A stretch of DNA of 64,000 nt from assembly GCA_027365725.1 (NCBI GenBank), contig DAHXMA010000012.1, positions 50,488 through 114,487 of the forward strand, given 5' to 3'. The stretch is from Candidatus Micrarchaeota archaeon (GTDB lineage: Archaea > Micrarchaeota > Micrarchaeia > Micrarchaeales > CABMGC01). Made by a program: the position numbers and the translations under genes. A model generated the notes under the pieces. That model did no database searches, had not been told where the DNA came from, and saw only the letters and a list, made by a program, of their open reading frames with translations. Shown piece after piece: positions 294 through 37,303 of this stretch; within the stretch, counting starts at the first letter, position 1, and each line of letters begins with the position of its first letter.

Positions 294-345
294 GTGTGAT
301 GATCGAGAACTGTCTGATCCGTGATGACGATCTTGAGTGCTGATC
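294..345 (+). ncRNA. C/D box sRNA (2'-O-methylation guide)
   Basis: C box GTGATGA 296-302; 11-nt guide TCGAGAACTGT 303-313; D' box CTGA 314-317; 3-nt spacer; C' box GTGATGA 321-327; 12-nt guide CGATCTTGAGTG 328-339; D box CTGA 340-343. This is the canonical archaeal C-guide-D'-C'-guide-D layout. Exact ends are not determinable. Confidence 0.8.
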
Positions 346-348
346 TGC

Positions 349-37218: not shown

Positions 37219-37303
37219 GCGCCAGTAGTCTAGCCTGGCAGGACTTCGCCTTCCCAAAAATTGGAAAAAGGCGAAAACCCGGGTTCAAATCCCGGCTGGC
37301 GCA
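37219..37303 (+). tRNA. tRNA-Gly (anticodon CCC) with 12-nt intron at canonical position 37/38
   Basis: Acceptor GCGCCAG/CTGGCGC + A, D-arm GTCT-AGCCTGGCA-GGAC, anticodon stem TCGCC/GGCGA enclosing 19 nt. Fold: TTCC/GGAA 4-bp helix flanked by 3-nt bulges CAA and AAA. Removing 37257-37268 gives loop TTCCCAA. T-arm CCGGG-TTCAAAT-CCCGG. An AT-rich TATA-like stretch lies at 37183-37195. Confidence 0.8.

Follow-up and report, generated by a model that had tools for sequence, protein, structure and literature searches.

A predicted box C/D guide RNA for the wobble base of tRNA-Leu(CAA), placed directly upstream of a histone gene in Micrarchaeota

Box C/D small RNAs (sRNAs), the guide for the wobble position of tRNA-Leu(CAA) in Thermococcales, and sRNA genes that abut an open reading frame (ORF) and are co-transcribed with it are each known. 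For Pyrococcus, C/D sRNAs have been described whose predicted target is the first anticodon position of tRNA-Leu(CAA) (PMC7994747), and it is common for archaeal sRNA genes to adjoin or overlap an ORF and to share its transcript (PMC7994747, PMC6009581, PMC3491384). The element described here occupies positions 296-343 on the + strand of a 64,000-nucleotide stretch of a Candidatus Micrarchaeota genome (contig DAHXMA010000012.1; this whole stretch is called the window). By its sequence, it is a canonical archaeal box C/D sRNA of a Micrarchaeaceae (DPANN) archaeon, and it lies immediately in front of a histone gene. It is very likely to be a guide RNA for C34 of tRNA-Leu(CAA) that is co-transcribed, as the leader of the histone message, from its own promoter. 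The literature searched contains no description of this sRNA, nor of any C/D sRNA, in Micrarchaeota, and neither the breadth of conservation of its guide nor its fixed pairing with the histone gene was found described there.

The tRNA-Leu(CAA) wobble guide of Pyrococcus and Thermococcus resembles the element in having four boxes, a 12-nucleotide (nt) guide and a pairing that places C34 at the N+5 position. The same guide core is found in Thermococcus genomes, and in both cases one functional guide is accompanied by a variable partner. However, the D' guide of the window is unrelated to that of the Thermococcales. The equivalence to the Pyrococcus sRNA rests on the guide shared with metagenome-assembled genomes of Thermococcus and on the statement of a review (PMC7994747). 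Fellow archaeal C/D guides of wobble 2'-O-methylation in tRNAs are sR-tMet of Haloferax and the tRNA-Trp intron guide. In eukaryotes, FTSJ1 acts on tRNA-Leu(CAA). The same nucleotide of this tRNA receives the same mark, 2'-O-methylcytidine (Cm34), from TrmL in bacteria and from Trm7/FTSJ1 in eukaryotes; these are stand-alone, protein-only enzymes, whereas an RNA guide is predicted here. The Cm34 enzymes for tRNA-Leu(CAA) have been tabulated (PMC4033218).

Kindred in another respect are the co-transcribed sRNA-mRNA units (Pyrobaculum 'category 1', Lui et al. 2018; Tripp et al. 2017; Nanoarchaeum equitans, Randau 2012). The likeness lies in the common strand, in a protein gene without a promoter of its own, in an sRNA that is cut out of the mRNA or kept on it, and in 5' and 3' ends that are not base-paired. 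In Pyrobaculum the ORF begins within the sRNA, its start codon falling in either the D guide or the C' box, and a guide overlapped in this way has usually lost its target, whereas the sRNA of the window lies wholly outside the ORF and its guide is conserved. It also differs from all these units in that sRNAs of its type are paired with one gene, that of the histone, across many Micrarchaeota species. The kink-turns (K-turns) through which L7Ae acts in the 5' untranslated regions (5'-UTRs) of the l7ae and nop5-fibrillarin mRNAs (Daume et al. 2017) are a further likeness, since they too place a K-turn-forming element near the translation start; the C/D K-turn elements of the window end 5 nt before the AUG. 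Those K-turns are simple, mask a Shine-Dalgarno sequence and autoregulate genes for ribonucleoprotein (RNP) proteins. In the window, an entire guide RNA instead precedes the gene of a chromatin protein, which has no Shine-Dalgarno sequence, and the K-turn is predicted from sequence.

The element has the full four-box layout. The inner pair, D' and C', is present, the two guides measure 11 and 12 nt, and 3 nt separate D' from C':

296-302, + strand: C box GTGATGA; RTGATGA in all 22 histone-linked orthologs
303-313, + strand: D' guide TCGAGAACTGT, 11 nt, probably orphan; read from the sequence
314-317, + strand: D' box CTGA; read from the sequence and seen in the orthologs
318-320, + strand: D'-C' spacer TCC, 3 nt; 3-9 nt in the orthologs
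321-327, + strand: C' box GTGATGA; RTGATGA in the orthologs
328-339, + strand: D guide CGATCTTGAGTG, 12 nt, with the 10-nt core GATCTTGAGT at 329-338
340-343, + strand: D box CTGA; read from the sequence
344-348, + strand: linker TCTGC, 5 nt, from the D box to the ATG at 349, without a Shine-Dalgarno motif

A strict regular expression for the four boxes was run over both strands of the window, with 400 first-order Markov random sequences as the control. It matched once in the window, at the sRNA, and in none of the 400 random sequences. When one mismatch was tolerated in each of C and C' and NTGA was accepted as D', the sRNA was still the sole match in the window, while the random sequences gave a mean of 0.03. 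By these controls, chance does not account for the four-box element. At permissive thresholds, 12 Rfam families align to positions 292-351 on the + strand, every one of them an archaeal C/D sRNA. All 12 alignments fall below the gathering thresholds (the best, sR2, scores 27.4 bits against a threshold of 42, with an E value of 2.8e-4), because the similarity is limited to the boxes. As the Rfam models are guide-specific for other genera, these sub-threshold scores exclude only the families named.

An earlier examination of the letters alone (the sequence-only reading) had called the element a canonical C/D sRNA. On re-reading, every one of its coordinates for boxes, guides, spacer and ATG proved correct, and the boxes are kept in relatives (the 22 histone-linked orthologs, among them four species reached through histone homology). 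Its statement that the window holds no second convincing C/D sRNA is upheld at the sensitivity of the two expressions. It had counted six tRNAs in the window, where ARAGORN and Rfam give five; these five match neither guide, as it had said of its six.

The D guide is complementary to an anticodon arm. Its complement, CACUCAAGAUCG, reads as the anticodon loop C32-U33-C34-A35-A36-G37-A38, flanked by A31 and by U39-C40. The guide core is GAUCUUGAGU, and the complement of the core, ACUCAAGAUC, equals positions 31-40 of tRNA-Leu(CAA). The pairing of the core runs from U338-A31 to G329-C40 and matches the tRNA-Leu(CAA) genes of other organisms at 10 of 10 positions. Counting G339 as the first nucleotide from box D, the fifth is G335, and its partner under the N+5 rule is C34. 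If the outermost bases of the guide paired too, the tRNA stem would need a C30-C40 mismatch. It is established from structures of archaeal C/D RNPs that only about 10 base pairs form with a 12-nt guide, so that the functional site is the 10-nt complement of the core. A random 10-mer is estimated to coincide with some 10-mer of a tRNA set with a probability of about 0.003. The D guide is thus predicted to direct 2'-O-methylation of the wobble C34 in tRNA-Leu(CAA), and not of rRNA; the sequence-only reading had proposed to search both rRNA and tRNAs. That reading had taken the 11-mer and the 12-mer to be both functional, where the outer positions of the D guide vary freely and the D' guide is short, variable and without a target. 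Among rRNAs, those of E. coli (16S, 23S and 5S) gave weak matches, and the complete archaeal 23S rRNA of locus L097 had no good site for either guide. A testable target, Cm34 of tRNA-Leu(CAA), can in this way be assigned to an unannotated RNA gene of a DPANN lineage.

The target site was sought in tRNA genes by two scans. The first required ACTCAAGATC followed, at tRNA distance, by the T-loop GTTCRAATC; it gave 73 stretches on viral contigs, and ARAGORN, applied to six of these loci, found tRNA-Leu(caa) at the match in four. The second scan added an archaeal-type D loop and arm like that of the tRNA-Leu(GAG) of the window. It gave eight metagenome loci, all eight of which are tRNA-Leu(caa) and none of which is shown to be from Micrarchaeota. 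Two low-GC loci among them (L095, L099) have glycine-cleavage genes as neighbours, suggesting Thermoplasmatales. The tRNA-Leu(caa) genes retrieved have G30-A31-CUCAAGA-U39-C40 in common and vary at positions 27-29 and 41-43. The L097 contig provides a comparison within one genome: its 23S rRNA offers at best 7 Watson-Crick and 2 G-U pairs with the core, against 10 of 10 for the tRNA-Leu(CAA) on the same contig. In L097 (4391-4476, 6808-9718) and L098, with a GC content of 56-58%, the tRNA-Leu(CAA) gene is located about 2.3 kb downstream of the 23S rRNA gene.

Since tRNA-Leu(CAA) is absent from the window, no tRNA of the window could match the D guide. To our knowledge nearly all archaea carry tRNA-Leu(CAA), and the tRNA set of the window includes isoacceptors of the C34 type (Lys-CUU), which makes its presence in this lineage likely. 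Judging by the guide, this tRNA would have the same anticodon arm and would be methylated.

The second guide of the sRNA shows a different behaviour. No target of the D' guide (D' complements ACAGUUCUCGA and ACAAGUUCUCGA) was found in the window, in E. coli rRNA or in the L097 archaeal 23S rRNA. In other Micrarchaeota the D' guide is 8-11 nt long and unrelated in sequence. Two candidate targets were discarded. The junction between variable arm and T-stem of the same tRNA-Leu(CAA) was tried as a pattern on genome contigs, with 0 matches, and tRNA-Glu(CUC) was ruled out, the anticodon stem of the tRNA-Glu(UUC) in the window being GGGG/CCCC. The D' guide is probably an orphan, and the D' half of the molecule is most likely purely structural. 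sRNAs directed at tRNAs usually have one working guide and another without a target (PMC7994747, PMC6009581), and the variable D' guide fits this single-guide habit.

Conservation was assessed independently of the guide in a set anchored on the histone gene. It contains four distinct species (that of the window, L011/12, L013-15 and L016/17), with histone identities of 68-72%. The sequences of the boxes, their order and all 12 bases of the D guide are unchanged in the four species. The intergenic flanks, the spacer and the D' guide have diverged; the D' guides are TCGAGAACTGT, TCGAGAACTTGT, CCGAGAACTTGT and TCTAGAATACGT, those of the three closest relatives being 12 nt long. Eleven contigs of the species of the window vary only in the upstream half of the gap between the genes for methionyl-tRNA synthetase (MetRS) and histone.

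The guide was then followed across archaea by scanning one genome per species with the pattern GATGA-N-GATCTTGAGT-N-CTGA. The pattern occurs at a minimum of 120 loci, in at least 120 species genomes, against about 4 expected by chance, as estimated from the size of the collection. Among the matches listed, 119 are labelled archaeal and fall into about eight lineages: Micrarchaeota (at least 29 loci), Nitrosopumilaceae with other Nitrososphaerota (at least 43), Thermoplasmatota (at least 27), Thermococcales (at least 8), Heimdallarchaeota (at least 2), Hadarchaeota (at least 1), DHVE2 (at least 1) and unclassified Euryarchaeota or archaea (at least 8). One locus among the matches listed is labelled bacterial (L160, 'uncultured bacterium'); the other boxes are missing from it and the match is probably due to chance. 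In 111 of the 119 archaeal loci among the matches listed, the upstream sequence has a C box and a D' box at proper distances, showing that the conserved element is always the D guide of a complete sRNA. In eight Thermococcus or Thermococcaceae genomes among the matches listed, the GATCTTGAGT guide sits inside a full four-box sRNA. Positions 1 and 12 of the D guide accept any base, and all four bases occur at position 12 within Micrarchaeota, as predicted for unpaired positions and in agreement with a pairing of about 10 base pairs. The D' guides are specific to lineages, being ACGAACCCTT in Thermoplasmatota, CCTCGGCAG in Thermococcus and CCTATCCCT in Nitrosopumilaceae. According to reviews, none of the rRNA sites is a target in every species examined. 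One guide common to at least eight archaeal lineages, Asgard and DPANN archaea included, is among the more widely conserved C/D guides.

Several lineages have variants of their own. In Nitrosopumilaceae the ends of the orthologous sRNA form a clear stem, GCAGGC...GCCTGC (L101, L110, L127, L128 and L132, with some 35 further loci). About 42 nt downstream of this sRNA comes a conserved ORF of 139 residues that starts MKSLTEYLTF; here too the sRNA is paired with a gene in a lineage-specific way. Locus L205 carries the label 'Proteobacteria bacterium', yet its sRNA is a typical copy of the Nitrosopumilaceae type, and the contig is probably mis-binned. In Thermoplasmatota a conserved hairpin, AGATATGC-loop-GCATATCT, followed by GCAA and a T-run, stands 10-25 nt after the D box (L124, L136, L139, L145, L156 and L176, and likewise L179, L187, L198, L210 and L216); it could serve as a terminator or represent another small RNA. 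Three Micrarchaeota loci (L121, L167, L208) have a variant of the sRNA in which a GC-rich hairpin of about 20 nt is inserted between D' and C'. The D' guide of this variant begins TCGAGGTATTG, its TCGAG start resembling the D' guide of the window. In L104 and L130 the 8-nt D' guide GATCTTTT contains a repeat of GATCTT, the six bases with which the D-guide core opens; this might be left over from an internal duplication.

The sRNA and the histone gene are on the same strand, separated by a 5-nt gap (below 25 nt), with a single TATA-like box upstream of both:

266-273, + strand: TATA-like element TTTTTATA, its first base at -30 from the C box; putative promoter
293-296, + strand: transcription start predicted from the TATA spacing, at or 1-3 nt upstream of the C box

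In N. equitans box A is found 26 nt upstream of the transcription start (PMC3491384). With the usual archaeal spacing of about 26-27 nt, the position of the TATA-like element puts the start at the C box or 1-3 nt before it. In about 19 of the 22 histone-linked Micrarchaeota orthologs, the 8-mer that most resembles a TATA box has its first base 27-36 nt upstream of the C box, and in the orthologs the A+T fraction is about 0.8 between -35 and -22 relative to the C box and lower on both sides. An internal TATA element for the histone gene is not conserved: the corresponding interval scores 3/8 in the window and 3-5/8 in most orthologs. A scan of the window for promoters and terminators of the bacterial type, which is not relevant to an archaeon, found nothing.

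Twenty-two Micrarchaeota species, 18 found through the guide and 4 anchored on the histone, have the sRNA linked to a histone gene. In these, the distance from the D box to the histone start is 1-29 nt, and it is 4-5 nt in 14 of the 22. The 18 species found through the guide come from 29 Micrarchaeota loci as classified by GTDB, and 0 of the 91 other loci among the matches listed have the linkage. The upstream TATA and the short, fixed gap between D box and histone point to one transcript, sRNA first and histone after it, and co-transcription of the two from one promoter is what their arrangement predicts. The sequence-only reading had left the choice between an sRNA processed from the histone leader and one sharing its promoter; the shared promoter is supported, by the TATA about 30 nt upstream and the lack of a conserved internal promoter, and processing stays a proposal. 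Across Micrarchaeota, this sRNA seems to adjoin a start codon as a rule. In L197 the sRNA is 5 nt upstream of a 258-residue ORF beginning MIKLVSWNVNGIRA, which by its look we take to resemble an exonuclease III-type protein, and in L143 it is 9 nt upstream of an ORF of 232 residues.

A pathway can be proposed on this basis. Transcription would begin from the TATA at 266-273, at or just before the C box, enter the histone gene 5 nt beyond the D box and probably go on through the two ORFs that follow. L7Ae, Nop5 and fibrillarin would assemble on the nascent leader, and assembly of this RNP would define the stable sRNA; that the RNA is expressed and bound in such an RNP is predicted from its boxes. 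The core GAUCUUGAGU of the D guide would pair with A31-C40 of tRNA-Leu(CAA) and the RNP would 2'-O-methylate C34. Through a G-U pair at position 34, tRNA-Leu(UAA) may be a further substrate. The mRNA part would either stay attached or, given a putative processing step at the D box, be released by a cut or by trimming beside it. The near-leaderless histone message so freed would be of the kind that archaeal ribosomes translate without a Shine-Dalgarno site.

Three alternatives bear on different parts of this reading. The D guide might be directed at a conserved rRNA site or at some other RNA, the match to tRNA-Leu(CAA) being a coincidence. Most archaeal C/D guides do target rRNA (PMC7994747), the rRNAs compared were those of E. 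coli and one archaeal 23S from another lineage, and positions 2089-2100 of E. coli 23S rRNA (CACUGAACAUUG) pair with the guide through 9 Watson-Crick pairs and 1 G-U pair out of 12. However, the tRNA match is perfect over 10 of 10 positions, with a chance estimate as low as that given above, and the nucleotide selected by the N+5 rule is a wobble base with known methylation, in a tRNA that has previously been described as a target of C/D sRNAs. The L097 archaeal 23S rRNA lacks a good site, and the variable partner guide is a pattern typical of tRNA guides. We therefore consider an rRNA target very improbable. It is improbable, too, that sRNA and histone gene are separate units, with the sRNA ending at the D box and a leaderless histone mRNA arising from a promoter inside the sRNA. 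Archaea make frequent use of leaderless mRNAs, and an A/T-rich D'-C' spacer lies about 28-33 nt upstream of the ATG in L011 (ATTTTATG), L118 (ATTAAATG) and L207 (CTGATATA). Against this, the interval is not TATA-like in the window and in most orthologs, a gap of 1-5 nt is too small for a T-run terminator, and there is a strong TATA at a fixed position upstream of the C box.

The third alternative concerns the purpose of the arrangement. An RNP positioned 5 nt from the AUG should hinder initiation on the unprocessed transcript, and on this ground the element might be mainly a regulatory leader, whose RNP blocks the access of ribosomes or protects the 5' end so that the output of the histone gene (or operon) tracks the supply of free RNP proteins, the guide role being secondary. 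The distance between D box and start is short and constrained with no Shine-Dalgarno site, and the linkage to the histone is kept in 22 Micrarchaeota species. There are also precedents: L7Ae represses translation through 5'-UTR K-turns in Sulfolobus (PMC5539422), and the assembly of sRNPs on sense-overlapping sRNAs has been proposed to interfere with initiation in Pyrobaculum (PMC6009581). However, the same guide occurs without the histone link in about 90 genomes of other phyla and at 11 of the 29 Micrarchaeota loci, indicating that selection acts on the guide itself, and a role confined to the K-turn needs no invariant guide core. A mainly regulatory leader is thus possible but unlikely, and the two roles are not mutually exclusive. 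The RNP on the first 50 nt of the histone operon transcript could be a working part of histone expression, either by marking the cut that makes the histone mRNA leaderless or as a cap-like and occluding structure through which histone output is set by the availability of L7Ae, Nop5 and fibrillarin; we think this doubtful. If it were so, the supply of a chromatin protein would be coupled to the machinery of RNA modification and ribosome biogenesis in a reduced genome. The conserved sRNA-histone unit offers a clean natural case for two questions: by what route one archaeal transcript yields both an sRNA and a translatable mRNA, and whether an sRNP beside a start codon controls translation.

A number of observations weigh against a co-transcribed guide for tRNA-Leu(CAA). 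No tRNA-Leu(CAA) or tRNA-Leu(UAA) of any Micrarchaeota was found in 368 kb (the window, 10 kb on either side of it, and 29 loci), and the tRNA-Leu(CAA) gene of the lineage could hold an intron interrupting the target site. The rRNA comparison covered the 16S, 23S and 5S of E. coli and one archaeal 23S from another lineage. The window contains no genes for fibrillarin, Nop5 or L7Ae; tblastn with fibrillarin and L7Ae queries gave no match in the window and its flanks, which are a small part of the genome. The sRNA gives no folding signal, having no terminal stem and a z score of -0.49, which is the norm among archaeal sRNAs. The invariance of the core over at least 120 loci is imposed by the search pattern, although its recurrence in many phyla is not, and the guide conservation that is independent of this pattern rests on four fairly close species. 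We nevertheless hold to the guide for C34 of tRNA-Leu(CAA), transcribed together with the histone gene, as the very likely reading.

The genes around the sRNA are the following:

2-232, + strand: methionyl-tRNA synthetase gene, 3' end; the 116-nt gap from here to the histone gene contains the sRNA
349-570, + strand: archaeal histone, 73 residues, the first gene behind the sRNA; from profile and Pfam
558-1112, + strand: ORF of 184 (or 180) residues, overlapping the histone end, probably in the same operon; from gene calls and synteny
1117-1368, + strand: PRC-barrel ORF, 83 residues, probably the last operon gene; from gene calls and synteny

A profile of the 22 orthologs matches HMfA, HMfB, HPhA and other histones over the full length (best HMfA, E value 7.5e-10). 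PF00808 matches 18 of the 22 orthologs; taken alone, the histone of the window is just under the Pfam cut-off. The histone ORF that had been placed at 349 is thereby confirmed. Identical copies of this histone are found on 16 metagenome or genome contigs. Its homologs have 68-72% identity, and one of them is assigned by name to a Candidatus Micrarchaeaceae archaeon. The gene order is kept in relatives and runs MCM (minus strand), MetRS, sRNA gap, histone, 180-residue ORF and PRC-barrel ORF; after the latter, RpoP, L37ae and exosome genes follow in an order that is also kept. The 180/184-residue ORF has a Cys-rich, zinc-ribbon-like segment and a weak zinc-finger match, and no Pfam family. Histone, 180/184-residue ORF and PRC-barrel ORF are probably one operon behind the sRNA promoter, syntenic in all relatives.

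Elsewhere in the window, the tRNA-Trp(CCA) at 37219-37303 (85 nt) has an apparent short A-rich insert after the anticodon; this insert is not a C/D guide. The 69-residue histone ortholog P0007 (L013-L015, 3001-3210) bears the Joint Genome Institute (JGI) name 'HJR/Mrr/RecB family endonuclease', an apparent misannotation. All orthologs begin M-(A/G)-x-I-(S/P) at the position equivalent to 349, so the alternative GTG at 337, noted earlier to lie within the D guide, is not the start. The histone orthologs of L016 (197-433) and L017 (196-432) (P0005 and P0002) are annotated with 78 residues from an ATG in the C' box (gtgATGAcg). By the same conserved N-terminus they would start at the TTG that follows the D box by 4 nt, which makes the additional annotated residues a reading of sRNA sequence. 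Recognition of the sRNA thus corrects gene starts that annotators had placed inside it.

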